From: Candidatus Micrarchaeota archaeon
GTDB lineage: Archaea; Micrarchaeota; Micrarchaeia; Anstonellales; Bilamarchaeaceae
Direction: 5' to 3'
Length of the DNA: 59,881 nucleotides
Assembly: GCA_043800955.1 (NCBI GenBank)
Contig: JAZDMN010000078.1
Coordinates: 1-59,881 of the forward strand
Both the position numbers and the translations under genes were made by a program. Below are positions 31,895-55,690 of the stretch, in pieces (the first letter of the stretch is position 1; every line of letters begins with the position of its first letter). The notes under the pieces are model-generated. The model ran no database searches. It was given only the letters and a program-made list of their open reading frames with translations, and was not told where the DNA came from.

Positions 31895-32009
31895 GCGATA
31901 GATACTATGGATAGTGTTTTAATATTCCTTGATGCGGCTGGTAGTGGCCGCAGCTAACAGAAAGGAATTTATTACCAAACCAATAATCCCGATGATACGA
32001 GGTGTCAGG

Positions 32010-33266
32010 ATGGAATATCAGCAGAAACTCTTATTGGTCACGGCAATCCTTGTAGCGGTTGCTTTGTATATTGTGTTCACGACGGCTCCGGCCCCGGGCC
32101 CGGAGAGCAGCGAGGAAGCGGAAGCGCTCCTTCTGAAATCCGCGGGATTCGGGAAGGGATTGACGGACTACACATACTCATACAGCGATATGTCGGATGG
32201 GTATAAGACCACTTATTCTCTGATAAAGGCCGGCGATGCGGGCTTCATCGAGATAAGGAACCCGCTTTCGACAAAGAAGGTTTATTTGCTCCCAAATGAC
32301 ACTATATTCTGCATCCAGTACCCCGTCAACGAGTCGTGCGTCTCGGTTGCGAACAACAGCGAGATGGGGAACTATATCAGCTTCGTGCAGTCGAAATTCT
32401 TCAACGACACGAACATCCTCAAGGCCGAGAGCGCGATGGGCGAGCTGATAAAGAAGGGCTACCTCCGCGTCGAGCCCGAGATAACGAACAAGGCCGTGGG
32501 TACGTTCGCCTGCAGCCAGGTCGTTTACATAATCGACTATTCCAATGTGACGGTCGACGAGGCGTCCAGGTACGGGATTGGAGCGCAGTCGCCAAAAAGA
32601 TACTCGCTCTACCGCTGCATAGATGCCGAGGGCGGGCTGGCTTACGAGACGGGCCTTTTCTATATCGACAAGGTGATGGAGCACAACAAGCTCACAACGG
32701 TCTCCGCGTTCAGGATGGATGCCCCCGCGATTGCGCCCCCGGCTAACCTTTCCGGCGATGCCATCAGCATCTTCAGGAAGGAAAGGGAGCAGCAGGTGAA
32801 GCTTGCGACCTGCCACACAGATAAGACGGGCGAGGAGAAGGACAAGTGCGTATCAGACATCGCATTCAACCTGAAGCGCAAGGACATCTGTGAGCTTTCC
32901 ATGTCCAAGAGGGACACGTGCCTGCTTTCCATAGTTTCACTGACGAAGGATGAGACGATTTGCCAGGCCATTTCAGATGCAGGTATGAAGGACAGCTGCT
33001 ACATCGAGCTTGCAGGCGCTTACAAGGACAGCACGTTCTGCGCGAAAGTGGCTGACGCGTCCAAGGTCCAGGCTTGCCAGGATGCTGCAACGCCGAAACC
33101 TGCTCCGCAGGGAAACGAGACGGCAGGAAATGTCACCGGAACGGCTGGGAATACGACAGGAACCGTTGACATAGAAAAGCTACTCGACTATGTGGACAAG
33201 GAAGACTCGGATAATGGCAATGCCTCTGCGGAGAATGCCACCGCAGGCAATGAATCAGAGGGCTGA
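32010..33266 (+). CDS. N-terminally anchored extracellular protein with C-terminal ~13-residue Cys-containing repeats and an N/T/G-rich tail
   Basis: Start moved to MEYQQKLLLVTAILVAVALYIVF. Repeats read KDKCVSDIA / KDICELSMS / RDTCLLSIV / ETICQAISD / KDSCYIELA / STFCAKVAD / VQACQDAA. Confidence 0.55.
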   Translation: MEYQQKLLLVTAILVAVALYIVFTTAPAPGPESSEEAEALLLKSAGFGKGLTDYTYSYSDMSDGYKTTYSLIKAGDAGFIEIRNPLSTKKVYLLPNDTIFCIQYPVNESCVSVANNSEMGNYISFVQSKFFNDTNILKAESAMGELIKKGYLRVEPEITNKAVGTFACSQVVYIIDYSNVTVDEASRYGIGAQSPKRYSLYRCIDAEGGLAYETGLFYIDKVMEHNKLTTVSAFRMDAPAIAPPANLSGDAISIFRKEREQQVKLATCHTDKTGEEKDKCVSDIAFNLKRKDICELSMSKRDTCLLSIVSLTKDETICQAISDAGMKDSCYIELAGAYKDSTFCAKVADASKVQACQDAATPKPAPQGNETAGNVTGTAGNTTGTVDIEKLLDYVDKEDSDNGNASAENATAGNESEG

Positions 33267-35848: not shown

Positions 35849-38416
35849 TCACATGGATTTGAACTCGATAAGCATCTTCTCGAGCTCGTCTGCCGTCAGA
35901 AGCAGGAGCGACGAGCTGTCGGATTCCATCTTGACAATCAGTGGTCCTACCGTGGGCGAGGAGTTGATCAGGGTCTGGAACTGCTCCTTGTCGGATGCGC
36001 TCTTGAAGAGGATAATCGCTATGCCGTGGCCGATTGTCGGGATTACGCGGGCCAGAAGAGCGGATGGGTTCATGTTCTTCTCGTAGAAGTGGAGTGACAT
36101 CGTCTGGCCGACAACGGTTATCTCGCTGTCGGCCTCCTTCGATTCCCCTATGCCCGTGAATGGGATGGCGTTGTTGACGCATATGTCGCGCAGGCGGCGC
36201 ATCATTGCCAGGTATTCTACCGTGCGCCTGCTTTCCTGCTGCCAGGCTATCAGTCCGTAATACCCCTGGGATTCCTTGACCATGCCCTTCTTCTCAAGGT
36301 CATCGAGCAGGAATTCCACGTTGTAATCGGTAATATAGACGGGCTTGCCCTTGTAGAATATCTCCTTGAAGCCGTTCTTGACTTCAGGAGCTGTTAGCGG
36401 TGTGTTCTGCCAGCGGTAGTTGCCGTTGACCTTTTCGAAGACGCTTAGGACGGTATCAGGCGAAAGCGGTATCTTGGTCCTGGCTATCGGCGGGAAGTCG
36501 GGGATGTCTATCGAGAAGAACACCTCTTCCTGGCGGGCGAATATGGCTCCGACACCCACGATGCCACCCGTGAGGAGGAGGGTTATCCAGAAGAAAGGCT
36601 CATCGAATATGGTCTTGGGGCGCGTGTGATTGACCGGGACGCTGACTCTCAGTCCGCCGGCTGTGAAATCGAAGCTGTGTTTTCCGATGGGGAGGAGCTC
36701 GCCTCCGGTGTACTGGCCGACGTCAATCGTGAGCTTGTCCACATTGTTGAATGTATAGGTGCCGTACTGCCCCCCGTCTACCTTGACGCTGATTTCGTTA
36801 AGGAGCTTCGGTGTGCCATCCATCATGATGTCGAAGCGGTATCCTGAGCGCCTCTGCTGGTTGTTGCCTGTGTATAGGATGTCGATGGAAACGATTTTCA
36901 TGTAGGTCTGTGCGTACACGCGGCTTTCATCATCTATGAGCTTTACGAGGTATTCCCCGCGGTCCAGGTAGATGAGGACGTCGAATGACGCATCCGCCTG
37001 CAGGTTCAGGTTGCCCTGCGGGAACGTCTGTATCTCGCTGCCGTTGCTGTCATACACGACAAGATACATGTTCGGCTGAGCGGCCTGCAATTCGCGCAGC
37101 TGCGCGTTCATGCGGACCGGGAGATTCGTGATGTTGGCAGAGACGACCCGCCCGCCTTCTTCGATGAATAGGGAGTTGTTCCGCTGCTTCTCGACCCGTA
37201 TGTAGAGCGTCTCCTTTATCGGGTTGTTGGATGTCGCCGAGTACCCGGTGAAATCCACCCTGACCGTCGCCTTGGGCGATTTGAATGGCTCGGAGAAGAA
37301 ATAGCGGTTGCCGGTATAATTGGTCTGGTTGACGAACAGGTATTCCTTGCTCTGAGAGCCTGGTGTGGCCCACGGGACCTCGAACACGATGCGCGAGACG
37401 TCCTCGGCGGCAGCTGAATAGTTCCCCCTCCAGCCGCCATCAAGCGTCTGGGGAAGGAAAATGAACGCCCCGTCCCCGGATTTGACGATGCTGACCGAGC
37501 CGTATGCCTGGCCGGACGCCCACCCGCCTCCGGGCACTGCCCGGTAGAGGGGCTGGAACAGGTGGAAGCCGTCGGTTGAGCTGACAGGGCTGCTCTCGTC
37601 GAACTTAACCGGAAGGTTCTGCATTATCTCTTTGGGCGTGAAGGCGACGAGGGTGCCATTGAGCATTTTCGAGAACGGCTGGCCGATGTATAGTATGACC
37701 ACGCCCCTCTGGGCAAGCTTGTTCATATTCATTGGGCTCTCGATACCGAGTATCTCTTTCGGTACGGCTCCAGAAGGGACGATGACCAGGGCGCCTTCCG
37801 GCACGGTCTCAAGCTGCTTGAGGGTGATTTCGTTGAGTATGATTTTCCTCTTGGCCAGATTCGCCCTTAGAGATGATATGAAATCCGGGTAGGTCGTCGC
37901 CTCAATCCTCTCGCTGTTCAATATGAACACTTCCGAGGGCATCTTATTCTCGTAGGTAGTGAGGTTGACGGAGTAGTTGTCGAGGTTGCGGGCGGTATAA
38001 TCCACGAGAACTGCCGCAATGTAACTGGAGGTGCCCCTGGAGCCGAATGTCATGACCTCCCCGCTTTCCAGGGTGTTCTCGACGGCTGCCTTGTCAATCT
38101 GCGGCTGGAGGAAGCCGGTCCCTGGCTCGATGAGCGCCATAGAAAGGTAGAGCCAGGCCATGCCCAGGATTATTAGCGCGATGAAGATGAACGCCCCGAA
38201 GACCATGAAGTTGAAGCCGCCTTTTGGAGGCTCCGCCATGATTACCGCCGCGGCTTTTTTCTCCTCCTTTTTCGGTTTCAGAAGGGCACGGAATGCGTCC
38301 TTTATGCGCTCCATCGGGGGGCGCTCTTTCATCTTGTAGTGGCCGAGGTACTGGTACTTCTTCTTCAGCTCGAAGCTGTATGTCTTCTTCTTGATTTTCG
38401 TGCTTTGCTCGGCCAT
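35849..38416 (-). CDS. Large bitopic membrane protein (basic N-tail, TM, ~520-aa extracytoplasmic domain, TM, ~245-aa C-domain); unknown function
   Basis: TM1 FNFMVFGAFIFIALIILGMAWLYL and TM2 FFWITLLLTGGIVGVGAIFA. It is the last gene of the VirB4-like cluster. Confidence 0.6.
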   Translation of the reverse strand: MAEQSTKIKKKTYSFELKKKYQYLGHYKMKERPPMERIKDAFRALLKPKKEEKKAAAVIMAEPPKGGFNFMVFGAFIFIALIILGMAWLYLSMALIEPGTGFLQPQIDKAAVENTLESGEVMTFGSRGTSSYIAAVLVDYTARNLDNYSVNLTTYENKMPSEVFILNSERIEATTYPDFISSLRANLAKRKIILNEITLKQLETVPEGALVIVPSGAVPKEILGIESPMNMNKLAQRGVVILYIGQPFSKMLNGTLVAFTPKEIMQNLPVKFDESSPVSSTDGFHLFQPLYRAVPGGGWASGQAYGSVSIVKSGDGAFIFLPQTLDGGWRGNYSAAAEDVSRIVFEVPWATPGSQSKEYLFVNQTNYTGNRYFFSEPFKSPKATVRVDFTGYSATSNNPIKETLYIRVEKQRNNSLFIEEGGRVVSANITNLPVRMNAQLRELQAAQPNMYLVVYDSNGSEIQTFPQGNLNLQADASFDVLIYLDRGEYLVKLIDDESRVYAQTYMKIVSIDILYTGNNQQRRSGYRFDIMMDGTPKLLNEISVKVDGGQYGTYTFNNVDKLTIDVGQYTGGELLPIGKHSFDFTAGGLRVSVPVNHTRPKTIFDEPFFWITLLLTGGIVGVGAIFARQEEVFFSIDIPDFPPIARTKIPLSPDTVLSVFEKVNGNYRWQNTPLTAPEVKNGFKEIFYKGKPVYITDYNVEFLLDDLEKKGMVKESQGYYGLIAWQQESRRTVEYLAMMRRLRDICVNNAIPFTGIGESKEADSEITVVGQTMSLHFYEKNMNPSALLARVIPTIGHGIAIILFKSASDKEQFQTLINSSPTVGPLIVKMESDSSSLLLLTADELEKMLIEFKSM

Positions 38417-38428
38417 ATGAACCCTGCC

Positions 38429-39235
38429 TTACCGGACGACTTCCAGATAACCCTCGCTCACAAGCTTGTTGAGCATCTCCTCGATGCGGGCATCCGGGAC
38501 CTTGTTGAGCTTGGCAAACTCGGTGATGTTTATCGTCCCGCTGTGCTCAGCCACCCACTCCTGAAGCTTGCCTTTCAGAGCCTCGTCGGAAAGCCCTTCC
38601 AGCTGCTGGAGGCGGAGCTTGAATTCGTCGTTCTGCGATTTCAGCTCATAGTTCTGGGATGTAAGGGCCTGGTTCTGCTCGGTCAGCCGGTCGACCTTTT
38701 TCCTGCAGTCGTCGACCTCCTTCTTGAGCGAATCGTAGGACGTGTAGAGCTTGTTGTAGTCCATTGTCACTGAGCCGGCCAGCTCCTTTATCGAAGTCTC
38801 GATGAGCTGGTATATTGTCTTGTTGTCCACTGAATACGAGGACTCGATGAGGGATAGGATGTTGAGCAGGTAGCGGATGACGTCCACGCGCCTCTTCTTC
38901 GGGCTGATTTCAGAGGGGATGGTGTACATCACTTCGAGCTCGTCCTCCTTGAGTTTAACTATTGAGAAGAGATAGGGGTTCTTGTCGATATCCCTGCTTT
39001 CCACGTAGATGACGTTCAGGACGTCCTTTTCAGGGGCGAGCTCGAGGAACGAAATCGAGCGCAGAATGGTGGCGAGGTCCTTCAGCTTGCCATTGACGAG
39101 CTTTCCCTTCATCTTGAAGCCGTCGACCTGCGGCGGGTGCGCCTCATCCTTCAATGGAGCGGCACCCTGCTGCGATGGCTGGGCTGCGCCAGGAGTTGGC
39201 GCGCCTTTCTTTGGCTGTGTCGTTGGAAGCGGCAT
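38429..39235 (-). CDS. Coiled-coil protein with P/Q-rich N-terminus and C-terminal wHTH-like domain
   Basis: Heptad-rich LKKEVDDCRKKVDRLTEQNQALTSQNYELKSQNDEFKLRLQQLE, ending ITEFAKLNKVPDARIEEMLNKLVSEGYLEVV. Confidence 0.55.
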   Translation of the reverse strand: MPLPTTQPKKGAPTPGAAQPSQQGAAPLKDEAHPPQVDGFKMKGKLVNGKLKDLATILRSISFLELAPEKDVLNVIYVESRDIDKNPYLFSIVKLKEDELEVMYTIPSEISPKKRRVDVIRYLLNILSLIESSYSVDNKTIYQLIETSIKELAGSVTMDYNKLYTSYDSLKKEVDDCRKKVDRLTEQNQALTSQNYELKSQNDEFKLRLQQLEGLSDEALKGKLQEWVAEHSGTINITEFAKLNKVPDARIEEMLNKLVSEGYLEVVR

Positions 39236-39244
39236 GTCTACACC

Positions 39245-39832
39245 TCACTTCTTCTTTGTCTTCTTTTTCCTGGCGGTTTCCCCTTTCGCGCCCTGCAGCG
39301 GGGCTTTTGCGGCAGTCCCGGCCTGGCTTTTCTGCTTCGGCGGCTCGGCCTGCGCCGTTTGCATTGGCGCGGGCGGATAATAGGGCCCGGGCGGAACCGG
39401 ACGCGCAGACCCCCCCGAAGCCTGCTTGGCCAGTGTGCTGACCCCTTCGACCGCAGGGACGTACTTGAACATGACCGGCAGGAGCACGATGAACCCCGCC
39501 ACGATGAAGCCGGACACGAAGGCCAATGCCTCGAAGCGGCCTGACAGGATGGGCGCGATTATCATGATGAGGAGCATTATTCCCGCAAGCACGCTTGCAA
39601 AGAGCATAGTCTTCTCGAACGAGCGCCTCCTTTCCATGTGCTTGGGCATGCAGGCCTCGCAGACGAAGAGCTTGTTCATCTGCGCGATGCGGAGCGCCTT
39701 CTTCACTGCCCGGAGGATGCGGATTACGCGGTCCTCCGCTATGGGGAACGCTTTCTTGCCCTCGACATCGAGCTGGCAGGAGACGCACATCTTCCTTCCG
39801 ACGGTTGCACCGTAATTGACATATTCGGCCAT
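39245..39832 (-). CDS. Zinc-finger (CxxC...CxxC) protein with two TM helices and a Pro-rich basic tail
   Basis: CVSCQ...CEAC. TMs are MLFASVLAGIMLLIMIIAPIL and LAFVSGFIVAGFIVLLPVMF. Start set at MAEYVNY, with GAGGGGGTG upstream. Confidence 0.55.
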   Translation of the reverse strand: MAEYVNYGATVGRKMCVSCQLDVEGKKAFPIAEDRVIRILRAVKKALRIAQMNKLFVCEACMPKHMERRRSFEKTMLFASVLAGIMLLIMIIAPILSGRFEALAFVSGFIVAGFIVLLPVMFKYVPAVEGVSTLAKQASGGSARPVPPGPYYPPAPMQTAQAEPPKQKSQAGTAAKAPLQGAKGETARKKKTKKK

Positions 39833-39845
39833 GCCATCCACCCCC

Positions 39846-41429
39846 TCATTCCTCCAGGACAACCTGGCTTATCTCGCGGCCAACGCCGCCGCTTTTCTTA
39901 AGATCCACTTTTCCGAAGATGTTGATTATCGTTATGTCGTCTATCCCCGCGTCTTTGAGGAAGTCGCCGATATTCCTGCGCGCGATGCCGTCGCGCTCGA
40001 GGGTCAGCACGAACGATACGACGTCCATGCGCCTGTTGGATTTATCGAAGACTTTTGTAAGCTCTTCGATTTTGTCGTCGGCCATGCCGAACTGCCGGAG
40101 CTTCCTCCTGAAATCCTCCTTTAGAAACGATACGCTTCTTGACACTGCAACATCCCTCCGCTGTTTGTCTGAGAGCACTCCGCTCAGGTCGAGGAAGAAC
40201 TCCTTGCTTGGCTCCTCGCCTTCAATCTGGCTGATAAGGAACGTGGACGGGTACGGCGTCGACAGCGTCAGCGACAAGTTGACTGCGCACTGACCTACGC
40301 CGAGCCGGCTGATTTCATCGCGCATGTAGTTGCTGAAATTGAGCGAGCCCTGGAGATAGTCCAGGAACTTCTCGAACTTCACCTTCAGCATGAATGTCGT
40401 TCCGACGTTCGAGAATATCGCCTCGCTGATGTCTGTTGGGTTCTGAGACGCGATAATCATGGCGAAATTGTACTTGCGGCCTTCGCGGACAATCATGACA
40501 GCGTCCGAGTTATCGTCTTTCCCGATTTTCCAGGCTTCGTCCAGGACGATGAGGAGTTTGAGGCCCTTCTGCGAGGCCCACCCTTCCAGCCTCATCTTCT
40601 CCTTGATGAACTGCAGTATCGTAAGCGCGGCAAGCGCACGGGACGTCTCATCCGGCAGCCCCGCAAGGTCCAGGTCCACTAAGCCAGACGATATGAGTAC
40701 ATCCAGGCTGACAGTGCTCTGCTGGGCGAAGAAGTCCTCTCCGGGCTTCGTGAACTGCTTGAGGCGGTAAATCGCGTTTTCGAGCTCTGCCGGGAATTCG
40801 TAGGAGCCGACCTGCGACTGTTCGGTGAGCACGCGCACGACGTCTTTGAGCGTGGGAGGGTTGAGGGGCTTTCCAAGCTCATCCTTCTGCTCCCTGGCAT
40901 CCATCCTGAACTTGTTTTCCATATAGACCTTCTCAATCGCCTGCTCGGTGAGCCTTCTCTGTTCAGGATAATTGGTGATGTCGGTAAGCAGCTCCAGCGT
41001 CCTCATGACCTGCTTGATACGGTCGTACGGCTTCATGCCGCCTAAATCAAGGAGGTTGAGGTACGAGCCTTTGCCCAGCGAGACTACCTTGCCGCTGGTC
41101 TGCTTGACCCAGTCGCGGTACTCTCCCGCCCAGTCAATTATCAGGCCGTTGCTGTTCCAGACGAACGCCGAGCGGAGCAGGAATGTCTTGATGAAATACG
41201 ACTTACCTGAACCGGATATTCCGACAATCGCGATATGGGGGTTGGCGACATTCTGGTAGCTCCAGTAGAAGGGCATGTTGAATATCTTGGTCCTGCCGAT
41301 GTAGATGGAATCGGTCGGGTCCCCGAAAAGGACCTCCATGGGCGGCTCCGGCGGATGAACCAGGAGGTTCCTCCTGGATATGGATGAATTTGAGAGCTTG
41401 ACGAGCCTCAGCTTTCCGCCGACAGCCAT
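39846..41429 (-). CDS. VirB4/TrbE/TraC-like (HerA-FtsK superfamily, DUF87-type) ATPase domain protein
   Basis: HIAIVGISGSGKSYF (Walker A), LLIVLDEAWKIG (DEAW Walker B), REGRKYNFAMIIASQNPTDI. Confidence 0.75.
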   Translation of the reverse strand: MAVGGKLRLVKLSNSSISRRNLLVHPPEPPMEVLFGDPTDSIYIGRTKIFNMPFYWSYQNVANPHIAIVGISGSGKSYFIKTFLLRSAFVWNSNGLIIDWAGEYRDWVKQTSGKVVSLGKGSYLNLLDLGGMKPYDRIKQVMRTLELLTDITNYPEQRRLTEQAIEKVYMENKFRMDAREQKDELGKPLNPPTLKDVVRVLTEQSQVGSYEFPAELENAIYRLKQFTKPGEDFFAQQSTVSLDVLISSGLVDLDLAGLPDETSRALAALTILQFIKEKMRLEGWASQKGLKLLIVLDEAWKIGKDDNSDAVMIVREGRKYNFAMIIASQNPTDISEAIFSNVGTTFMLKVKFEKFLDYLQGSLNFSNYMRDEISRLGVGQCAVNLSLTLSTPYPSTFLISQIEGEEPSKEFFLDLSGVLSDKQRRDVAVSRSVSFLKEDFRRKLRQFGMADDKIEELTKVFDKSNRRMDVVSFVLTLERDGIARRNIGDFLKDAGIDDITIINIFGKVDLKKSGGVGREISQVVLEE

Positions 41430-42239
41430 TCAAATCACGCTCTCCTCCATCTCCTGAGCCGTCATCGGGAAGAATTTCTCCCACTCGAAGCACTTTAGCA
41501 TCTCGTCCCCGGTGAGGTTCACGACTTCCACGTTCAGCGCATTTGCCAGCACGGTCTTGAGCTCGTTCGCCTGCGAGCGAGCGCCTGCCATGGCCGCGTC
41601 CTTGCTAAGGCCTACTGCTGTCGTCTGGGCATAGGCTATCACGCCCATCGGCTTCACGCCCTTGATCAGCTTCGTGAGCTGGTTGTCCCAGATGGCGACC
41701 TCGCGCTCGAGCTTGTCCACCCTAAGGACATCGGGCTGCTGCTTGTCGCGCTCGCGGGCAAGGCGCAGCTGCGCCTCGGCGCGCTTAGTCTCGATTGTCT
41801 TCCTCTTCTCGCCTACATCCTCGACATAGAGCATGTATGCGATTTTCGTAACATATTTGATGTTCGATATGGCGCGCTCGAAGAACGCGTTGTAGGCCAT
41901 CGTCTCCTCGCCCGTCTTCTCCGTGGCCGACTCGAAAATCTTGACACCGAGGAAAGCCGACGAATAGAACACGCCGTTGACGCTCTTGACTATGACGTCC
42001 TGGCTAGGGGGTATCTCGTATCCGAGGTCGGATATCATCACGATCTTGGTCCTCTCTGTTATGAGGGGTATCATGATGTAGCCGTATCTCCAGAAAAGGA
42101 CGCCAAGGACAGAGCCCATGAAGGCGAGCAACCCCCCCAGAAGGGAAAGCAGGCCTCCCCCGCCGATAAGGGAAAAGAGGGCTCCGATAAATCCGACCGC
42201 GATAGCGGCATAAGTGTAAGTCTTCGCCGGTGTAGCCAT
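41430..42239 (-). CDS. Two-TM membrane protein with soluble domain; candidate VirB3/VirB4 N-terminal-domain equivalent
   Basis: Start set at MATPAKTYTY, with GAGGT 8 nt upstream and TTTATATA further upstream. TMs are AAIAVGFIGALFSLIGGGGLL and LLAFMGSVLGVLFW. Its stop TGA abuts the ATPase ATG. Confidence 0.55.
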   Translation of the reverse strand: MATPAKTYTYAAIAVGFIGALFSLIGGGGLLSLLGGLLAFMGSVLGVLFWRYGYIMIPLITERTKIVMISDLGYEIPPSQDVIVKSVNGVFYSSAFLGVKIFESATEKTGEETMAYNAFFERAISNIKYVTKIAYMLYVEDVGEKRKTIETKRAEAQLRLARERDKQQPDVLRVDKLEREVAIWDNQLTKLIKGVKPMGVIAYAQTTAVGLSKDAAMAGARSQANELKTVLANALNVEVVNLTGDEMLKCFEWEKFFPMTAQEMEESVI

Positions 42240-42344
42240 ACGATTGTACCTCTGGTTTGATTGATTATTTAAGAAAGTATATAAAAACCGCACTATTGCG
42301 TTCCTGACGTTATTTTATCAACCCGGTTGCCAACCGCGCAATCA

Positions 42345-43058
42345 TCACCTTATCAACGCGCTCTGGGCTCTTTCCACATCCCTTGCGACAAGCACCGGGC
42401 TCGGCTGGGATGACATCCTTAATGCGCCCTGTCTTATGAGGTCAGCGGGGTTCAGGTAGCCCGCCAACGAGGACGGGTCGCGGTAGCGCGCTGCGGGCAT
42501 CAGGGCGAAGAAGTTTTTCCCCCGCAGATATGCGCCAAGCTCGCCCCGCTGGTGCATCTCCATGAAGCTGTCCGCGGAATATGAGCGGCCGCCGAACTGG
42601 AATTCGGTCGTTGCGCTCACATGAACGTGCGGCCCGCTTGCCCCAGTCGCCGACCTTCCGGTCACTGCGACAGGTGAGCCTTCCCCTCCAGGGCGCATTT
42701 CGACTTCGGTGCCTATGGATATGCGTTCCCGCCTGAGAAGCTGGAAGGTTCTGGGCGAGAGGTGGAGAAGGGATACGAAATACGGCCTCCCTTCGTTCGG
42801 GATGAAGAAAATGAGGGCGTTGCCCATAGAGCGGCCTGCAGGCGAGCTCTCGCGCGTCGTGCCAATCAATACCGCCCGGTGCGCCGGGACCTGGATTGGG
42901 ATGCCTTCCGGTACAAAAAGGTCTATGCCGTTATGAGGCGTCTGGCGCACCGCGCCGAAATGGAACCCCCCACCCGTGCGCTCGCTCCGGTCGACAAGCC
43001 GGAACGCCTGCTCGAACGGGTCAGCCCTTCTCGGCACCTGCCCTCCCGGCTGTGTCAT
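42345..43058 (-). CDS. M23 (LytM) family metallopeptidase without an evident signal peptide
   Basis: HNGIDLFVP (HxxxD), LLHLS, TGRSATGASGPHVHV (G.TG.STGPHLH-like). It starts 8 nt after the purB stop. Confidence 0.75.
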   Translation of the reverse strand: MTQPGGQVPRRADPFEQAFRLVDRSERTGGGFHFGAVRQTPHNGIDLFVPEGIPIQVPAHRAVLIGTTRESSPAGRSMGNALIFFIPNEGRPYFVSLLHLSPRTFQLLRRERISIGTEVEMRPGGEGSPVAVTGRSATGASGPHVHVSATTEFQFGGRSYSADSFMEMHQRGELGAYLRGKNFFALMPAARYRDPSSLAGYLNPADLIRQGALRMSSQPSPVLVARDVERAQSALIR

Positions 43059-43066
43059 ATAGCCAC

Positions 43067-44377
43067 CTAGTCTTTCACCGCGTCTTCAACAATCTTCTTC
43101 GCCTGCCCTATATATGTCGTGTAGTCGAAAAGCTCGTCCGCTTCTTTCTTCGAGAGGAGCTTCCGCTCTAATACCAGGTCTTTCATATGGCGCTTCTTGG
43201 CGAACGCCTCTTGTGCAAGCTGGCGGACGGCCTCATGGGCCTCCTGCCTCCCGAGCCTGCCGCTTTCAACCAAAAAAATCATGATGCGCTCGGACATGAC
43301 AAGGCCCTGCGTCAGCTCGAGGTCTTTTTTGATGTTTTCCGGGTAGAATACAAGGCCGTCCAGGATTTTGGTCATCTCGAGAGCCATATAATCGACGGAA
43401 ATGAAGCTTTCGCCGAAAATCGCCCGCTCGTTCGCGCTGTTTGTGAGGTCGCGCTCATGCTCGAGCGCTATGTTCTCCAAGGCCGTCAGGACGTTCGCCC
43501 GTGAGAGGCGCGCAAGCGAACAGACCCGCTCGCATTTGTGCGGGTTGCGCTTCTGCGGCATCGTGGAAGAGCCGACCTGCTTGGCGGAGAATGGCTCGGA
43601 GACCTCGCATATCTCGCTCCGCTGCAGGTTCCTTATCTCCTTGGCCATCTTCTCGAGCAGAGCCGCCGTGATGGCGATTGCGCATAGCGCTTCGGCATGC
43701 CGGTCGCGCTGCACGACCTGGTTCGTCACCGGATCTTCCCCCAGGCCGAGCTCCTTCATGACCAGCTTCTGCATTTTCGGGCCGTCGTTGCCGAAGGTTG
43801 CCATGGTGCCAACGGCGCCGGACATCTTGCCCACCGATATGCGCTTCTTTGCCTCTTTGAGACGCTCGAGGTCGCGCTTGAGCTCCTGGTAATACAAGGC
43901 GAACTTCATCCCGTACGTGGTGGGGACCGCGTGCTGGCCATGCGTGCGGCCGATGCAGACCGTCCCCTTGTGCATAAGGGCAAGGCGCTTAAGCGTGGTC
44001 GCGAGGACGCCAAGCCGCTTCTCGAGCTGGGATATGCCCTCTATGAAAATCAGGGCCGTCGCGGTATCCTCTATGTCGTAGCTTGTGGCTCCCAGATGGA
44101 CGTACTTGCCCGCTTCGCCAGCCTGCTCGGTGAGCGCCTTCACCATCGCCATCAGGTCGTGGTGTATCTGGGCCTCTATCTCGATGACGCGGCTATGGGT
44201 GACCTTCTTTGCCGCCGCCTCTATCTTGGATGGGGCGTCCTTGGGGATGTGCCCGAGAGCGGCATGGGCCCTGGCGAGAGCGACCTCCACGGCCATCCAT
44301 TTGCGGAGTATAGTCTCGTCATCGAAAACAGCGTTCATCTCTGTCTTGTACCTTTCTTCGAATGGAGATATCGCCAT
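43067..44377 (-). CDS. purB: Adenylosuccinate lyase
   Basis: GSSTMPQKRNPHKCE signature plus fumarate-lyase family motifs. Confidence 0.9.
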   Translation of the reverse strand: MAISPFEERYKTEMNAVFDDETILRKWMAVEVALARAHAALGHIPKDAPSKIEAAAKKVTHSRVIEIEAQIHHDLMAMVKALTEQAGEAGKYVHLGATSYDIEDTATALIFIEGISQLEKRLGVLATTLKRLALMHKGTVCIGRTHGQHAVPTTYGMKFALYYQELKRDLERLKEAKKRISVGKMSGAVGTMATFGNDGPKMQKLVMKELGLGEDPVTNQVVQRDRHAEALCAIAITAALLEKMAKEIRNLQRSEICEVSEPFSAKQVGSSTMPQKRNPHKCERVCSLARLSRANVLTALENIALEHERDLTNSANERAIFGESFISVDYMALEMTKILDGLVFYPENIKKDLELTQGLVMSERIMIFLVESGRLGRQEAHEAVRQLAQEAFAKKRHMKDLVLERKLLSKKEADELFDYTTYIGQAKKIVEDAVKD

Positions 44378-44610: not shown

Positions 44611-45735
44611 ATGAGCATGATAGCACAGGAAACATACGATAAGCTTGCAAAAGGCGACAGCGCCCCCCTTGACGAAGTCAGCGCAGCAATATCATCCAGG
44701 AACCTGACTCAGCCGGAGATAAACGCCACCTGGAAGGCCCTTTTTGAGGCGGTTTCTTCGAAAAATGGCAATACCGCCCGGTTGGTCGATTTGGGCATCT
44801 CTCTGTGCAACATCTCCCAGAACCCGGAGGCCCGCGACATGCACGAGAAGCTTTTCATGCTGGCTGCCTTTCCGCTCAATCCCCGCGCGCATGTTGCGAT
44901 TATCGGTGTAGGCGCATCAGTAGTCAGGATAAATGCCGGCGAGGTGGAAACGAAAGCCGTTGACAGGCAATGGTACCTCGGGATGGCCAAGAGATGCCTG
45001 ATAAACGCCATCCATGCAAACGAGGGTGCGATAAAGAAGGCCGGGGAGAAGGGCGACCCAATCCAGGACATGGAGCAGAACGTGATATTCATTATCGAAG
45101 CGCTGAGGCAAATCGAAGGGAACGACGTCAAGGCCGAGCTTGTGGCAATCGTCCGCAACGGCTTCGGAAAGAAGGTCAAGGATGTTGCAGGGGGCAGCAT
45201 AGGGCCCATCCGCATAAGGGATGAAGCAGATGGGGCGACGGCCGACAAGGACTTCCTCATCGAAACGGTCTATCCTGACCCGACGACCCCGCAGAGGATG
45301 TACATAGAATGCATATTCAGCGCGGTTGAGACTGTCTATTCCGGTAAAGCAAGTGAAAACGAGACCGCGATTGCCCTTAAACAGCTGACGACTTTCGGCG
45401 CTCAGCCAGGCGAAATCGGCTCCCTTTTCGACGCGCACAGCCTCAGGGTCATAACAAGGAATGTCGAGAACGCGCTCCTTCATGCGCTCTCTAGCCCGAA
45501 TCCTGCGCACAGGGAAGTGGCTGCAGCCGGGCTTGAGAAAATCGGCAGCGACCGCATCGAAGAGATACTCGAGCGGATAGTCGCACGCAGCGGCGAATCA
45601 AGCGAAGTCTCCGCTCTCGCATCCGAGGCGCTCTCCGTAATCAGGGGAAACAAGCTTGAGATATTCGAGGTCAGGCTTCCGCCGCCTTTCCGTAAACCGG
45701 CGCCGCCCCCGCTGCAGAAACGAGCTGTCCAGTAG
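44611..45735 (+). CDS. Hypothetical protein with HEAT-like repeats
   Basis: LLHALSSPNPAHREVAAAGLEKIGSDRIEEILERIV. The second ATG at 44617 is better spaced from AGGTGAT. Confidence 0.5.
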   Translation: MSMIAQETYDKLAKGDSAPLDEVSAAISSRNLTQPEINATWKALFEAVSSKNGNTARLVDLGISLCNISQNPEARDMHEKLFMLAAFPLNPRAHVAIIGVGASVVRINAGEVETKAVDRQWYLGMAKRCLINAIHANEGAIKKAGEKGDPIQDMEQNVIFIIEALRQIEGNDVKAELVAIVRNGFGKKVKDVAGGSIGPIRIRDEADGATADKDFLIETVYPDPTTPQRMYIECIFSAVETVYSGKASENETAIALKQLTTFGAQPGEIGSLFDAHSLRVITRNVENALLHALSSPNPAHREVAAAGLEKIGSDRIEEILERIVARSGESSEVSALASEALSVIRGNKLEIFEVRLPPPFRKPAPPPLQKRAVQ

Positions 45736-45768
45736 CATTAAAACCCTAAGCGGGCAAATCATAATTGA

Positions 45769-46560
45769 ATGGCCAATGTTCGAGTTCTCCGGAGGCAGGA
45801 AAAGGCCTATATTGAGCTTCCATCTGCCATTGCTGGGTACGATGAGCTCGAGCTTTTCATGCTGAAAGAGGGCTATTACCTGATTACTGTTCCTTTGGGC
45901 GTTCATGCGCCCCAGCAAACCCTGGAGAAAGGCCGTTTAAGCGAGGCTGAAATCGCCATCATGAAAAAGCTCCTTTCTATAAGATTCGAGAACCGCACGC
46001 CGGAGTATGTTGGGAAGGCGCTTTCGGAAAGCGAGATGAAAACGCTCCACGGGTTAGAGCAGAGGGGAATGGTCAATGTTTTCCGGGGGACCAAGTACAA
46101 GGACGGCGTCTACAATATCAGCGACCACATCTATCCGCTCCTCCAGAAAAGCCAGGGGGCGCCATCAACGGACGCTCCAGCGGAAATAAAGCCGCAGGCG
46201 ACAAGCCCCAGGGGCGCGGCCCCCGGAAGCCAGACCGGGGCGATGCTTCAGAGCCAGGGATTCATAATCATCCAGGACAAGCGCGAGGCGATGATGCTTT
46301 CCGAGGGGCTTGGCCCGCAGATGAAAAGCGGTGCTGTCGTCGGTGTGAAAGGCTTCGACGGAAAATTCTACATCGTCACAAGGGAGTACTACTCGAAGGC
46401 CAGGGCACTGATAGACGCAGCGTTGAAGGGCCAGATGGACGCTCCTTCCGTCGCATCAGCGACCAGGCTTGACCCGGAGGGATGCCTGGCGGTGCTGCGC
46501 CTGATGGCTGAAAACGGGGACATAATCGAGAAGAAGAAGGGCATTTTCGCGCCAGTCTGA
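45769..46560 (+). CDS. Hypothetical protein with two wHTH-like regions
   Basis: LSEAEIAIMKKLLSI...LEQRGMVNV and ATRLDPEGCLAVLRLMAENGDIIE. Confidence 0.5.
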   Translation: MANVRVLRRQEKAYIELPSAIAGYDELELFMLKEGYYLITVPLGVHAPQQTLEKGRLSEAEIAIMKKLLSIRFENRTPEYVGKALSESEMKTLHGLEQRGMVNVFRGTKYKDGVYNISDHIYPLLQKSQGAPSTDAPAEIKPQATSPRGAAPGSQTGAMLQSQGFIIIQDKREAMMLSEGLGPQMKSGAVVGVKGFDGKFYIVTREYYSKARALIDAALKGQMDAPSVASATRLDPEGCLAVLRLMAENGDIIEKKKGIFAPV

Positions 46561-49791: not shown

Positions 49792-49937
49792 TTTTTTACA
49801 ATCCTTTTTTCCGGTGCCTTTGGGAATCAGGAAGTTTGATAAAGACTTGAATAGACAGTTTTGATGAAACTTCCCTATTGTTCTTTGAACAATGGGGTGC
49901 AAAGAACGAAGTTCTTTGCCATTCCTAAAAGTTTGAT

Positions 49938-49952
49938 GCAGGAGTAGCGAAG
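49938..49952 (+). repeat. Orphan perfect copy of the first 15 nt of tRNA-Leu
   Basis: GCAGGAGTAGCGAAG at 49938-49952 and again at 50011-50025. Confidence 0.7.
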
Positions 49953-50010
49953 TTATTGAACTGCGGTTCAATATTCGCCGCTCCCGCTAAGGTGAAACAG
50001 ATGTTTTCAC

Positions 50011-50129
50011 GCAGGAGTAGCGAAGCGGTCAAACGCGGTGGACTTAAGAGCCGTATATTCCCGAGCCGAATGCGGCATGGGAAATCCTCTGGCTTAGTGC
50101 CTTCGAAGGTTCGAATCCTTCCTCCTGCA
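50011..50129 (+). tRNA. tRNA-Leu(UAA), class II, with ~35-nt intron at 37/38 (50049..50083)
   Basis: GCAGGAG/CTCCTGC plus A. D-arm GCG-AAGCGGTCAAA-CGC. Anticodon arm GTGGA-CTTAAG[intron]A-TCCTC (one U-U mismatch). Variable arm TGGCTTAGTGCCTTC. T-arm GAAGG-TTCGAAT-CCTTC. Confidence 0.75.
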
Positions 50130-50240
50130 TATAGTTTTTTGTTATAATCTCAAATCGCCGCTTCGTCTATTACTCTAATTGATTCCGTTTTTTGACGATA
50201 TGATACAAATGTTTTTATAGCTCTTAACACAAAATTACTC

Positions 50241-50936
50241 ATGGAAATAATTCCAAGTCCAACCCTGCTGGCCCCATACGATTTACTATCTAGTCAGCTA
50301 TGCGTATTTGACTCAATCAGATCATCTCTTTCATTCGCTCATGCCGCTTCCCAACTATGTATGCCATTAGTGAATAATACGCTACAGATAGCGATAAAGC
50401 AAATCCAGCAGACGTATGATGCAGTAAAGAATCTCATTCAATCCTCACTGTCGAGCATTCTTGAGAATATCCAGTGGTTCTTCAGGCAATTGAATGTAAT
50501 CATTCGTAAGGCGTATATCAGGTTCTTTGCAGTCGACGAGGACCAATTGGACAATAACCTGGTGGGGGCTTCGCCTCAATATGCGTCTATGCGTCGATCA
50601 GCTTGGAAGGCTTACAAAGATAAAAATACTGAAGACTATGCCCGGCAGGCGTGCATATCCATGCGCGAGTTGTATAATGACTGTATTGGGAAGAATCCGA
50701 CTTATCGCGATAGCATAAAAAAGAAGCTTCGGGGTAGAGAACAAACCTTAGTTGATTATATCTGTGACCTGAATAAAGAGGTTGCTGATGACCTAAGTAC
50801 CCAGTGTCATACTAGGGGGGTAGGAGAGGTCATCGATATCGAGTTAGTCTTTTATCAGGCGCAATTTGTTCTTTTTGCTTTGTTTAATCCAAATTATTTA
50901 GATTCAAGATTCGCCGCCCATGCAAGTGCTAGTTAG
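50241..50936 (+). CDS. Hypothetical protein (island)
   Basis: 231-aa ORF with no recognisable motif. Confidence 0.45.
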   Translation: MEIIPSPTLLAPYDLLSSQLCVFDSIRSSLSFAHAASQLCMPLVNNTLQIAIKQIQQTYDAVKNLIQSSLSSILENIQWFFRQLNVIIRKAYIRFFAVDEDQLDNNLVGASPQYASMRRSAWKAYKDKNTEDYARQACISMRELYNDCIGKNPTYRDSIKKKLRGREQTLVDYICDLNKEVADDLSTQCHTRGVGEVIDIELVFYQAQFVLFALFNPNYLDSRFAAHASAS

Positions 50937-51042
50937 ACCTTCATCAGATAGCATAGGTTACATACGAATAAATCATTTTGCTCCAATGAATAAGCTATCA
51001 GTGGGTTCCTCCTAAGCAGCGCGTCCCCTTTGGGGTGTTGAG

Positions 51043-52056
51043 ATGAGTTACGAGAATCAGATAATAGATGTCGAGAAAATCATTTCCGAACATGTCAGAT
51101 ACTTCTCGCCCAGGAGGAAGAACTACCTTAAGGGCCGGTTGGAAGACTTTACAAATAAAGTTTATCACTTTGGCGAGATTGAACTCCAATTAGTGGTAGA
51201 CGCAAACATGATGATCGCGGCGGGTATTGCCAAGTGTAAGGGCAGGTTTTCTTTTTTCTATGAACTAGCGAATTCACCGCATCTGAAGCTTTGTGCGCCA
51301 CCAACACTCATTCAGGAACTAGAAAAAAACATCCCAAAAAGGGCGGAAGAGAATAAAGTTGAAGCTTCTGCAGTTAAAGCTTCAATTGAACCGCTTCTCA
51401 ACAAGGTATCTATCCTCAAAGCTGATGACCCCGCCCTCCAAAAAGCAGACAAGCTCATTGGAGCTAGGGATCCGGGAGATGTTTCTTACGTTGCATTATC
51501 TATCCATACTAGATCGCATGGGGTTCTAACCAACGACAACGACATCAAAGAGTTACCTCAAATCGCTAGCTGGAATCTTAGCGGAGTAGCTAAGGTCTTA
51601 ACAATCTTCGAAAATGGGTCTTTCTCATTTCACGCATTAGCGTTCGATGTTCCTGTCCTCCTTAGAATATTATATGAAGCCTGTCTGTGTATTCTGGGTT
51701 ATATATGGAGAACGATTACAAGTATGATTTCTAGTTTTGCTCAGATAGTTAGTGGGGGTTTGGCTGCCATGTCCAAATCATCTGCCTTAACTGCCTTAGT
51801 AATCCTTAGTGTCATTGGCGTATATATTTACGCAAAAGACCTTTGCGTTCAAATACTAGCCGATGTCGCTTCGAAAATCTCGAATTTCCTTAACAGTGTC
51901 TATAATGCGATAAAAAGTATCATAGGATTCGCTGGTGGGCTTATCCAAATGGGAATTTCTGTTCTTGCACTACTTTTCAAGAACGTCGAGAATACGATTA
52001 CAACATACAAGAATCTTTCTGAGAACCCTACAACTGTAGCATCAAATTTCTGTTGA
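51043..52056 (+). CDS. PIN-domain nuclease fused to a C-terminal multi-TM region
   Basis: LVVDANMMIAAG, IQELEK, DPGDVSYVALS, VLTNDNDI. These are followed by ~4 hydrophobic segments (ALTALVILSVIGVYIY, GFAGGLIQMGISVLALLF). Confidence 0.6.
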   Translation: MSYENQIIDVEKIISEHVRYFSPRRKNYLKGRLEDFTNKVYHFGEIELQLVVDANMMIAAGIAKCKGRFSFFYELANSPHLKLCAPPTLIQELEKNIPKRAEENKVEASAVKASIEPLLNKVSILKADDPALQKADKLIGARDPGDVSYVALSIHTRSHGVLTNDNDIKELPQIASWNLSGVAKVLTIFENGSFSFHALAFDVPVLLRILYEACLCILGYIWRTITSMISSFAQIVSGGLAAMSKSSALTALVILSVIGVYIYAKDLCVQILADVASKISNFLNSVYNAIKSIIGFAGGLIQMGISVLALLFKNVENTITTYKNLSENPTTVASNFC

Positions 52057-52191
52057 TATTTCCGACCGTTCTCAGGGCATCGTCGTATAAGGGTCTGGCA
52101 GAGCCTTATAAAGCCGGAACAAAAACTCAGGGGATTGACGAGATGCTCTCAGGCCTGAGAATATATAGAACCTAGCTCAGAACAGGGCTCC

Positions 52192-53391
52192 ATGAACGAA
52201 TACACAATTTACAAGCATCAGACAAATATGGAGCAGGAACTCAAACGACTTAATGCTTCGGGTTTACCTCTCAAAACAAAGGGAATAATCGAAGAATTCG
52301 CCAAAATGCGACTTGCCAGGGGGGCTACCAAGCTGAGGGTAGTTAAGTGCATGTGGTGCCTCCGTCTTATGGCGTCCTGGCTCAATAAAGACTTTAAGAA
52401 AGCGAACCAGAACGACCTTCTGAACCTTGTTTCTGCGCTGGATATGAAAGACTATTCCGAATACACCAAATACGATTTCAAGATTGTCCTCAAAACATTC
52501 TACAAATGGCTTTTGGGCGAGGATGAGGAGTTCCCGAAGGTCATCAAGTGGCTTAAACCAAAGCTCAAGAACAAGAAGCATAAGCTACCAGAGGAGCTTT
52601 TGAGCGTAGAGGAAGTCCAAAAGCTCGCTAATGCTACGACAAACCCGCGCGATAAAGCCCTTATTTTGGCTTTATACGAGTCTGGATGTCGTATTGGAGA
52701 GATATTATACCTCAAGCTCAAGAACGTCCAATTTGACCAATATGGCGCTATCCTGAGAGTATCTGGTAAAACAGGAGACCGACGGGTTCGTATTATTGCC
52801 TCGGTTCAAGTGCTTTCCCTTTGGCTGCAGGAACACCCTGATAAGGATAACCCCGAGGCTCCTATGTGGCCCGGTAGGCTTGGACGATACCGGCCGGAGC
52901 CATGTTCTTACCCCACAATATTGGCGATGCTCATTCGGGCCAGAAAGGCTGCTGGCATAAAGAAACGGGTTTATCCTCACCTTTTCAGGCATTCCCGAGC
53001 TACGGCCCTCGCAAACAAGCTAACCGAAGCGCAAATGAAGGAATATTTTGGTTGGACTCAAGGCTCGGAGATGGCAGCTACATACGTTCATTTGTCAGGC
53101 CGAGATGTTGATTCGGCGCTACTTCAGATGTATTCGATGAAAGATGTTCCAACCCAGAAAGAGGTCAAGTTGGATATTCGCACTTGCATACGCTGCAAAG
53201 AGAAAAACTCACCAACTCAGACATTCTGCGGAAAATGCGGAAATCCGCTTGACGAAAAATTGATTCTTGAAGATCCGAACAAGAAGCCGAATGAGCTGAT
53301 GAATGCCTTAATCGAAGACAAAGAAGTGAAGGAGCTGCTCGTAAGGAAAATAGCTGAGCTTGGGCTAGAGGATAAACTGAAGGTGTGCTAA
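52192..53391 (+). CDS. Tyrosine recombinase/integrase with C-terminal zinc ribbon
   Basis: GCRIGEILYLKLKNV (Arg), HLFRHSRAT (HxxR), ATYVHLS (Tyr), CIRCKEK...CGKCGNPL. Confidence 0.85.
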   Translation: MNEYTIYKHQTNMEQELKRLNASGLPLKTKGIIEEFAKMRLARGATKLRVVKCMWCLRLMASWLNKDFKKANQNDLLNLVSALDMKDYSEYTKYDFKIVLKTFYKWLLGEDEEFPKVIKWLKPKLKNKKHKLPEELLSVEEVQKLANATTNPRDKALILALYESGCRIGEILYLKLKNVQFDQYGAILRVSGKTGDRRVRIIASVQVLSLWLQEHPDKDNPEAPMWPGRLGRYRPEPCSYPTILAMLIRARKAAGIKKRVYPHLFRHSRATALANKLTEAQMKEYFGWTQGSEMAATYVHLSGRDVDSALLQMYSMKDVPTQKEVKLDIRTCIRCKEKNSPTQTFCGKCGNPLDEKLILEDPNKKPNELMNALIEDKEVKELLVRKIAELGLEDKLKVC

Positions 53392-55685: not shown

Positions 55686-55690
55686 TAAAG

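Follow-up and report, generated by a model that had tools for sequence, protein, structure and literature searches.

A chromosomal operon conserved across Micrarchaeota with a predicted two-gene VirB4/CedB-like motor and lineage-specific membrane partners

It is still an open question how DPANN archaea attach to their hosts and draw on them, and hardly any of the molecules involved have been assigned. Micrarchaeota are host-associated, and a run of minus-strand genes in one of their genomes raises this question in concrete form. The genes lie in a stretch of 59,881 nucleotides from a Candidatus Micrarchaeota archaeon of the Bilamarchaeaceae (GenBank assembly GCA_043800955.1, contig JAZDMN010000078.1, positions 1 to 59,881; hereafter the window), and their products include an ATPase with the hallmarks of type IV secretion systems (T4SSs). 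What machine do they specify? With a probability of about 0.6, we consider this to be a vertically inherited Micrarchaeota operon that comes from the archaeal and monoderm branch of T4SSs, which comprises CedB, TedB and the VirB4 proteins of conjugation systems of the Firmicutes/Actinobacteria/Tenericutes/Archaea type (MPF-FATA), and whose likeliest role is in cell-to-cell contact or exchange.

The conserved unit consists of five genes (35849-42239, minus strand), separated by gaps of 0, 13, 9 and 12 nt. They encode a 269-aa protein with two transmembrane (TM) segments, designated NTD for N-terminal domain, followed by a 527-aa ATPase, a small 2-TM protein with CxxC motifs, a 268-aa coiled-coil protein and an 855-aa bitopic membrane protein. 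An earlier note on this DNA, made from the sequence alone, had proposed a tightly packed unit of six genes. All six minus-strand open reading frames (ORFs) are present and the packing is as described for the five, but the sixth, an M23-like ORF, proved to lie in a strain-specific insertion and is set apart below. On either side of the operon are purB (43067-44377; TIGR00928, E 1e-147) and tfe, as that note had recognized.

Conservation was assessed by scanning one genome per GTDB species; 161 genomes encode the ATPase, and the best 80 loci were kept. In tblastn comparisons of the window proteins with 82 related loci, the order NTD, ATPase, CxxC, coiled-coil and 855-aa gene is colinear and on one strand wherever the contig reaches, so that the gene order is indeed kept in related archaeal genomes. 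Synteny of the NTD gene holds in 73 related loci; most gaps between the genes of relatives measure -4 to +15 nt, and gene lengths are conserved. The flanking genes purB, tfe, GT4, an HD-domain gene and PAC2 are likewise syntenic across species, and the operon occupies its position between the same housekeeping genes in dozens of them. More than 120 database clusters match the ATPase at 70-92% identity, and the named ones belong to Candidatus Micrarchaeota, Bilamarchaeum or Bilamarchaeaceae. Across the best 80 of the 161 species loci, ATPase identity is 64-98%, and the titles read Micrarchaeota, Micrarchaeia, Anstonellales, Micrarchaeales and Bilamarchaeaceae, with a few entries for "Candidatus ainarchaeum sp." and "uncultured archaeon".

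The five proteins are not equally constrained. Median identities are 76% for the ATPase, 65% for NTD, 58% for the coiled-coil protein, 41% for the 855-aa protein and 38% for the CxxC protein, as compared with 70% for purB. Since the ATPase has a higher identity than purB in 51 of 51 loci, it appears to be under stronger purifying selection than this housekeeping enzyme. Conservation also extends to about 70 nt of sequence upstream of the operon. In the closest relative used for nucleotide alignment (locus L003, ATPase 98% identical), window positions 42309-41301 align to L003 9121-10129 at 88.6%, which includes this upstream region (42240-42309, minus strand). A TATA-like box, TTTTTATATA, can be read there about 45 nt before the ATG together with a Shine-Dalgarno-like AGAGGT, and the region presumably serves as the promoter.

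The composition of the operon matches its surroundings. GC content at third codon positions (GC3) is 0.76-0.79 in the five genes, the same as in purB and other neighbors, which agrees with the chromosomal location, host-like composition and housekeeping flanks noted earlier. Library scans found no relaxase, VirD4-type coupling protein or integrase within the syntenic flanks, again as previously reported (the dedicated tools MOBscan and CONJScan were not run); no IMG/VR contig carries relatives, and PHROGs returned ATPase-fold matches only. Because the operon is syntenic, host-like in composition and free of relaxase, coupling protein and integrase genes in its syntenic flanks, we take it to be a domesticated chromosomal machine and reject an integrative and conjugative element, against which the lack of relatives in IMG/VR also speaks. 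The broader proposal that it is an ordinary conjugative or mobile element, or an anti-phage defense module of the HerA/DndH type, is scarcely credible. It can draw on PADLOC matches of the P-loop domain to DndH (1e-18) and HerA (1e-16) and on a tRNA-flanked, low-GC island with an integrase 7 kb away. However, the PADLOC matches cover the shared ATPase fold only, which also led us to reject a defense system, and the locus lacks an integrase, a relaxase and a coupling protein, and contains neither a nuclease nor a sirtuin as partner. The island is separate from the operon, lies outside the syntenic block and carries restriction-modification, PIN and integrase genes only and no T4SS genes. The same housekeeping position in dozens of species effectively refutes the idea, to which the GC3 values and the lack of IMG/VR relatives add.

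The family to which the ATPase belongs is central to the identity of the machine. The protein (39846-41429, minus strand) is an FtsK-HerA-superfamily ATPase of predicted VirB4/CedB type. An N-terminal domain is lacking, with only about 40 residues before Walker A, and the protein ends in a helical extension of about 140 aa that is conserved across the wider family. An alignment of 11 family sequences shows no variation in GISGSGKS (Walker A), LDEAW (Walker B), REGRKYN or SQNPTD, and so the GSGKS, LDEAW and RKYN...SQ...D motifs from which a VirB4-like protein had been proposed are sound. Pfam AAA_10, DUF87 and P-loop_TraG all score above cut-off. Of the Pfam families that the earlier note had named, DUF87 is thus borne out on the ATPase, CagE_TrbE_VirB does not match NTD, and M23 stays below its cut-off on the M23-like ORF. 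The top NCBIfam matches are VirB4_plasma (8.7e-20), CedB (1.1e-19), CD1110 (1.1e-18) and CedD (8.9e-18), at 64-71 bits and over residues ~40-380, the whole P-loop domain; the first three of these score 67-71 bits over residues ~40-375. HerA models reach about 1e-11 and 42 bits over local stretches around Walker B and the sensor region, and Pfam FtsK_SpoIIIE matches 38 residues around the P-loop (E 3.4e-4, 20.6 bits versus a cut-off of 24). No HAS barrel or FtsK gamma domain was found in the protein. By these comparisons the ATPase scores best as VirB4/CedB-like, not as HerA or FtsK, in line with the earlier assignment.

Relatives outside the family point the same way. An HMM (hidden Markov model) search of 1.8 billion representatives returned 2635 relatives of the ATPase, and the nearest out-family proteins, 870-913 aa long, match the CedB model from one end to the other at E 1e-34 to 1e-42. 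When the ATPase was compared with plasmids by tblastn, at least 5000 records matched, 4736 of these conjugative, and among the genes under the matches are TraC and conjugative ATPases of the TraG family, with 22-26% identity across 63-81% of the query; TrsE of pSK41 is related at an hhalign E of 2.5e-4. With the conjugative VirB4 proteins (TrwK of R388, TraC of F and TrsE of pSK41) the window ATPase shares the P-loop domain, the DEAW Walker B, RxGRKYN and SQ. It differs from them in its extra C-terminal domain and in being encoded off mobile elements. HerA-NurA and anti-phage HerA proteins belong to the same superfamily and share the DUF87 match, but their similarity to the ATPase is local; the HAS barrel is missing, no NurA, sirtuin or nuclease partner is present in the locus or in relatives, and the window ATPase would be membrane-tethered. 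A helix-hairpin-helix (HhH) DNA-binding reading of the C-terminal domain was also considered and rejected, as the PDB-sequence matches are weak (TopoV and AGOG, E ~0.03) and unconfirmed by Pfam; the domain matches no family convincingly.

If the ATPase is of VirB4/CedB type, where is the N-terminal half of the protein? The upstream gene offers a candidate. NTD (41430-42239, minus strand; its start, ATG 42239, matches the family alignment) combines a TM hairpin with a cytoplasmic alpha/beta and coiled-coil domain, and its AlphaFold2 (AF2) model (mean predicted local distance difference test score [pLDDT] 70) has long helices in the alpha/beta domain that comes after the hairpin. The sole specific Foldseek matches of this model are to TrwK/VirB4 of R388 (7o41_B, 8rtd_g and 7o43_A; probability 0.77-0.89, E 0.06-0.08). 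In profile comparisons by hhalign, NTD matches the N-terminal 300 aa of the fused CedB-like ATPases with a probability of 89% and an E of 2e-6. The soluble part, with the TM segments removed, retains a probability of 71% (E 3.6e-5), compared with 1.7% for a reversed control, and a broader NTD profile with divergent members matches residues 1-254 of the fused CedB-like protein P0404 at 93.8% (E 1.7e-7). Together, NTD and the ATPase amount to 269 + 527 aa, approximately the length of a full VirB4. A split into TrsD plus VirB4 is known in pGO1-type and Patescibacteria T4SSs (PMC12102498), and in pSK41 trsD is followed by a DUF87 ATPase. We thus interpret NTD as the likely detached, membrane-anchored N-terminal half of a CedB/VirB4-like protein, which would make this a motor divided over two genes; a separate gene for this part, with its own TM hairpin, would set it apart from conjugative VirB4/TraC/TrbE ATPases such as TrwK. 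An SPFH/Band-7 label attached to one 2-TM homolog in UniRef is unsupported by Pfam or Foldseek. The earlier statement that four of the six proteins have no recognizable family was accordingly too strong with regard to NTD.

The two-gene motor is found in more than one setting. We examined gene contexts through look-ups of divergent relatives and a metagenome scan (338 relatives; best 80 loci kept) and distinguish three module types. Type C, the window type, has NTD, ATPase, CxxC, coiled-coil and 855-aa genes and accounts for 22 of the best 80 metagenome loci. Type B, found in 21 of the 80, has genes for a small 2-TM and a 6-7-TM protein ahead of NTD, ATPase and the coiled-coil protein. In type A, pilin-like, polytopic and NTD-like genes accompany a short (~370-aa) ATPase, and L088 is the only such locus with a coiled-coil candidate (a weak match, 2e-4). 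Seven further loci have only the triad of NTD, ATPase and coiled-coil genes. The small 2-TM proteins upstream give sub-threshold matches to Pfam T4SS_pilin/TrbC, from 1.3e-5 (25.6 bits versus a cut-off of 26.6) to 0.035; such pilin-like proteins are encoded in L085, L087, L088, L090, L091, L104, L105, L108, L127 and L170, followed by the 6-7-TM protein, upstream of the NTD-ATPase(-coiled-coil) genes. L085 and L087 have homologous polytopic proteins (E 4e-14). Types A and B both occur in Micrarchaeota: L087 (5935-9113) is from this phylum, and L170 (8121-12074) is an Anstonellales contig on which the module lies between genes for TBP, L21e, Rpb4, fibrillarin and Sua5. Type B modules are chromosomal too, because purD and other housekeeping genes follow them. 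The genes 3' of the coiled-coil gene in type B were considered as homologs of the 855-aa gene and dismissed, as they encode purD, a transglutaminase-like protein and a geranylgeranyl reductase. These contexts show that the triad is common to a wider chromosomal family, and suggest that the window-type operon descends from a pilin-bearing system.

Several individual loci deserve mention. L167 (8020-15363), of type C, has a TrbC/VirB2-like ORF of 114 aa (Pfam E 0.009) and two tandem copies of NTD upstream of the ATPase, and may stand midway between the architectures with and without a pilin. L088 (5858-13452) encodes a second, 757-aa DUF87/Zot/TrwB-like ATPase that is a candidate coupling protein. 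In most species the window-type operon adjoins purB, and in at least seven loci (L090, L092, L097, L104, L105, L118 and L147) purD comes after the type B module; a purine-biosynthesis gene borders each of two paralogous modules, and this may reflect chance or a common ancestry of the neighborhood. The modules with pilin and polytopic genes, in Micrarchaeota and related metagenomic contigs, look like undescribed Ced/Ted-like systems in DPANN.

The resemblance to Ced and Ted raises the question of DNA import. In the Sulfolobales Ced and Thermoproteales Ted systems, CedB/TedB are VirB4-like, CedA/TedA VirB6-like and CedA1/TedC pilins, and CedD/TedD complete the set (PMC9905601, PMC11823120). Like the operon described here, these are archaeal, chromosomal, relaxase-less T4SS derivatives with a membrane-anchored VirB4/HerA-like ATPase; CedB is among the top curated models for the window ATPase, and related modules carry pilin-like and polytopic genes. 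Unlike them, the window has its ATPase divided over two genes and scoring far under the CedB and CedD cut-offs, has no CedA- or CedA1-like gene in cis and hence not the full Ced set, and encodes CxxC hairpin, coiled-coil/winged-helix and 855-aa surface proteins that have no Ced/Ted counterpart. Its lineage is DPANN and theirs Thermoproteota, and an import role here would be by analogy. The earlier view that the partners differ from those of Ced/Ted is consequently right for the genes in cis, but paralogous modules of the same phylum keep both a VirB2-like pilin and a polytopic protein.

A Ced/Ted-like import of DNA for repair or recombination, in which the pilin and the VirB6-like channel are supplied in trans by a paralogous module, is an unlikely but substantive alternative. 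The Ced components are themselves dispersed in Sulfolobales (PMC11823120), and L087 and L170 demonstrate that modules with pilin-like and polytopic genes occur in Micrarchaeota. CedB and CedD are among the closest curated models, and the nearest relatives match CedB end to end. Basic tails on two of the membrane proteins, the winged-helix domains and the HhH-like matches of the ATPase C-terminal domain would also fit a DNA substrate. Yet the scores fall far short of the CedB/CedD cut-offs (70.6 bits versus 700 for CedB), the HhH lead lacks confirmation by Pfam, and the winged helix of the coiled-coil protein is nearest to protein-binding winged helices (CdvB, EAP30). Moreover, there is no CedA, CedA1 or TedC homolog in cis and no second, VirD4/CedD-like ATPase in the locus.

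The remaining three proteins set the window type apart. The small CxxC protein (39245-39832, minus strand; alternative starts TTG 39862 and ATG 39790) combines a cytoplasmic N-domain of about 65 aa with a TM hairpin, the conserved motif KYxPAxE, a variable region rich in Pro and a C-terminal tail rich in Lys/Arg. The description of a CxxC/CxxC, 2-TM, Pro-tailed protein fits most members of the family, but the cysteine motifs are not universally conserved: CxxC...CxxC is degenerate in some members, and one Cys is nearly invariant in the family alignment. No significant family match was found in Pfam, NCBIfam, PHROG or PADLOC. Every window-type locus carries the gene; the type B and triad-only relatives lack it. 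We regard the protein as a Zn-ribbon-like hairpin with a basic tail, and it and the 855-aa protein as lineage-specific membrane proteins.

The 268-aa coiled-coil protein (38429-39235, minus strand) is cytoplasmic, with a variable N-tail, an N-domain at ~35-150, a coiled coil at ~155-215 and a C-terminal winged helix. Homologs follow the ATPase in type B and triad-only modules (L083, 8e-37; L085, 5e-35). Pfam gives only sub-threshold coiled-coil and winged helix-turn-helix matches, including ZapB, DivIC, YabA and EAP30/Vps36 (0.007), and the L170 ortholog (11403-12074) matches EAP30/Vps36 at 0.001. For the winged helix itself (window 38429-38590), the top PDB-sequence match is CdvB (ESCRT-III; 2xvc, E 7e-4). 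The likeness to ESCRT-type winged helices is weak and recurs in two divergent orthologs.

These similarities are also what an involvement in chromosome segregation or division would call upon, with a membrane-tethered, FtsK/HerA-like DNA pump of T4SS ancestry and a coiled-coil/winged-helix adaptor. We consider this improbable. A single-copy gene set in a fixed housekeeping neighborhood, with an ATPase more conserved than purB in all 51 loci, would suit a core cellular function, and the sub-threshold ZapB, DivIC and YabA matches, the CdvB- and ESCRT-II-like winged helix and the FtsK_SpoIIIE match (E 3.4e-4 around the P-loop) are in keeping with it. However, the coiled-coil matches are generic, the FtsK match spans 38 residues, is under cut-off and comes with neither HAS barrel nor gamma domain, and the nearest relatives are of T4SS type and located beside pilin-like genes. 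In addition, an adhesin-like extracellular region of about 510 aa would have no obvious role in segregation.

That region belongs to the 855-aa protein (35849-38416, minus strand), whose AF2 model has a pLDDT of 80.6. A Lys-rich, disordered cytoplasmic N-tail (1-69) leads into TM1 (70-95), and TM2 (607-627) is followed by a cytoplasmic C-domain (653-855). Between the TM segments, the model predicts an extracellular region in which one beta-sandwich precedes an alpha/beta domain (176-350), with three or four more beta-sandwiches after it (357-600); the C-domain is modeled as a fold resembling a winged helix, followed by a small alpha/beta fold. Foldseek retrieves macroglobulin-, Ig- and FnIII-like beta-sandwich arrays (alpha2-macroglobulin, C3, RbmA and Bap; E down to 3.5e-8), and a viral structure library yields generic FN3/Big matches. 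A reading of the protein as a fusexin or class II fusogen was dropped, as none is among the top Foldseek matches. The protein has no Pfam, NCBIfam, PHROG or PADLOC family, its C-domain has no match in PDB sequences or Pfam, and its homologs are all hypothetical proteins of Micrarchaeota. Its best-conserved parts are the cytoplasmic C-domain and the alpha/beta domain, and the distal beta-sandwiches are conserved least.

Might the motor exist simply to build this protein into the envelope, as a dedicated assembly or insertion system through which nothing passes between cells? The 855-aa protein is the sole component with a substantial extracellular part, its cytoplasmic C-domain is among its best-conserved regions, and VirB4 proteins are known to energize the assembly of pili and channel complexes (PMC12102498). 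On the other hand, the triad occurs without an 855-aa gene in cis (L083, L092 and others) and also with pilin and polytopic genes instead, so that the motor is not bound to one substrate. We judge this explanation to be quite improbable.

By analogy, a role in cell-to-cell contact or exchange is the most likely function of the operon, because Micrarchaeota are host-associated and because the ATPase appears to be under stronger purifying selection than purB. In such a machine, the NTD hairpins would tether an ATPase hexamer to the membrane, and the two other membrane proteins, through their cytoplasmic domains, would dock on it, as would the coiled-coil/winged-helix protein. ATP hydrolysis would then power the assembly of a surface structure, or the translocation of macromolecules through it, with the 855-aa protein forming its extracellular part.

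A number of observations weigh against this interpretation. The ATPase reaches about 70 bits at best with the curated models, as compared with cut-offs of 325-700 for VirB4, CedB and CedD and of 325-1177 across VirB4_CagE, TraC, TrbE and CD1110; because of this distance, we place it as related to, but outside, any curated VirB4/TraC/TrbE/CD1110 equivalog. A profile search of PDB sequences puts HerA chains at the top, above the VirB4 entry 4ag5, which is the single VirB4 C-terminal-domain entry, and the placement of the ATPase therefore depends on match coverage and on its relatives and on no single score. For NTD, model confidence is moderate and the Foldseek E-values are weak; Pfam CagE_TrbE_VirB does not match it, nor does any NCBIfam model, and no similarity to TrsD of pSK41 was detected in a low-power test with one sequence. 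No pilin-like or polytopic gene was found by tblastn or HMM searches in the window or within 10 kb on either side of the window-type loci of the genome scan, which agrees with the earlier observation that no VirB6-like polytopic protein is visible. The host-contact function is proposed from lifestyle and analogy. Finally, purB in the window and pyrBI and phosphoribosyl pyrophosphate synthase in relatives indicate that this clade makes its own purines and pyrimidines, and there is consequently no obvious need for scavenging nucleotides from a partner cell.

The sixth ORF of the original proposal has a different history from the operon. Relative to L003, window positions 42310-43073 are an insertion of 764 bp that separates the purB stop from the conserved sequence upstream of the NTD gene; in L003, purB is only ~19 nt from the promoter region of that gene. 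The insertion, which has a GC content of 0.626, above its neighbors, contains a minus-strand ORF of 237 aa (42345-43058) that resembles M23/LytM peptidases and stands outside the conserved module. HNGID (HxxxD) and HVH (HxH) motifs are visible, and the best PDB-sequence match is the M23 entry 2hsi (E 0.011, around HxxxD), with ShyA also matching weakly. The ORF is thus where it was reported, but its assignment to M23 is weak, below the Pfam cut-off for PF01551 (E 0.044, 14.4 bits versus 28.7), and it has neither a signal peptide nor a TM segment. Since it is a strain-specific insertion with zero tblastn matches among the 82 related loci, the argument that a hydrolase next to VirB4 marks an MPF-FATA system fails, and the operon has no conserved cell-wall hydrolase component of the VirB1/TrsG/CHAP/M23 kind found in T4SSs. 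A peptidoglycan hydrolase would be odd for an archaeon.

Other features of the window are unconnected with the operon. The low-GC island (50011-59881, to the contig end; GC 0.41 versus 0.547 elsewhere) follows an intron-containing tRNA (Rfam 49.8 bits; missed by ARAGORN), at which similarity to L003 ends (window 49829-50130). It encodes a tyrosine integrase (52192-53391), a PIN_2 protein (51043-52056), an AlbA_2/HATPase_c_4 regulator (55691-57073) and an Eco57I-type methylase (57471-59720), and is probably a strain-specific integrated element with defense genes, unrelated to the operon. At 44611-46560 are a 374-aa ORF (sub-threshold HEAT_2, 25.8 bits versus 27.7) and a 263-aa ORF, both syntenic near the operon in relatives. 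Large ORFs without a family match encode a 979-aa protein (8304-11243) and a Cys-rich, secreted-looking 445-aa protein (31929-33266), and the window contains two P-type ATPases (2414-5077 and 22494-24746).

Two further systems of host-dependent or DPANN lineages provide points of comparison. In Patescibacteria, a chromosomal, relaxase-less T4SS derived from MPF-FATA is indispensable to Ca. Southlakia epibionticum for its epibiotic growth and is made up of VirB4, TrsD, PrgI/VirB3, VirB6 and VirB2-like proteins (PMC12102498). As in our case, the lineage is ultrasmall and host-dependent, the system is chromosomal, extends throughout the phylum and has no relaxase, the N-terminal part of VirB4 has a counterpart (in our case a probable one) in a separate protein beside the ATPase, and the machinery appears co-opted beyond conjugation. 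The Patescibacteria system differs in being bacterial and in having VirB3, VirB6 and VirB2 near virB4, none of which is found in cis in the window type, and the TrsD of pSK41 has no detectable similarity to the window NTD. In nanohaloarchaea, giant surface proteins termed SPEARE join Ig-like repeats and a TM segment to a VirB4/TraG-like ATPase domain and a coiled coil, and have been proposed to act in host interaction (PMC10266531). These, too, come from DPANN and bring together beta-sandwiches arrayed outside the cell, a membrane anchor, a VirB4-like ATPase in the cytoplasm and a coiled coil, a likeness we take as architectural analogy only; there the parts are fused in one giant protein, whereas in the window they are separate genes. 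In the literature searched, which covered few subscription journals, we found no prior description of the operon. Taken together, the comparisons support a domesticated archaeal T4SS of the Ced/Ted/MPF-FATA kind, divergent and with new conserved partners.

A more specific and tentative possibility is that the operon encodes the core of a Micrarchaeota-specific conduit, in which a T4SS-derived motor that has lost or outsourced its pilin and VirB6 drives a new structure that spans the envelope, made of the 855-aa protein and two sets of TM hairpins, for host docking and the exchange of macromolecules. Cryo-electron tomography of a cultivated Micrarchaeon has revealed a docking structure embedded in the envelope (PMC11329633), and such a conduit could be that structure. 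If this is true, it would be the long-sought host docking and exchange machine of DPANN archaea and an archaeal counterpart of the essential Patescibacteria T4SS.

What makes the operon of interest is that every related Micrarchaeota locus examined combines a recognizable motor, with a constrained ATPase, and a large surface protein, and has no channel or pilin in cis: a T4SS-type motor that does without a VirB6-like channel or pilin, at least in cis. With at least three paralogous module types, these findings would extend the story of domesticated archaeal T4SSs from Thermoproteota to DPANN, and the parallel with the independently domesticated Patescibacteria T4SS suggests convergent use of such machines by ultrasmall symbionts. 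The operon offers a concrete five-gene target for study in the few cultivated Micrarchaeota.

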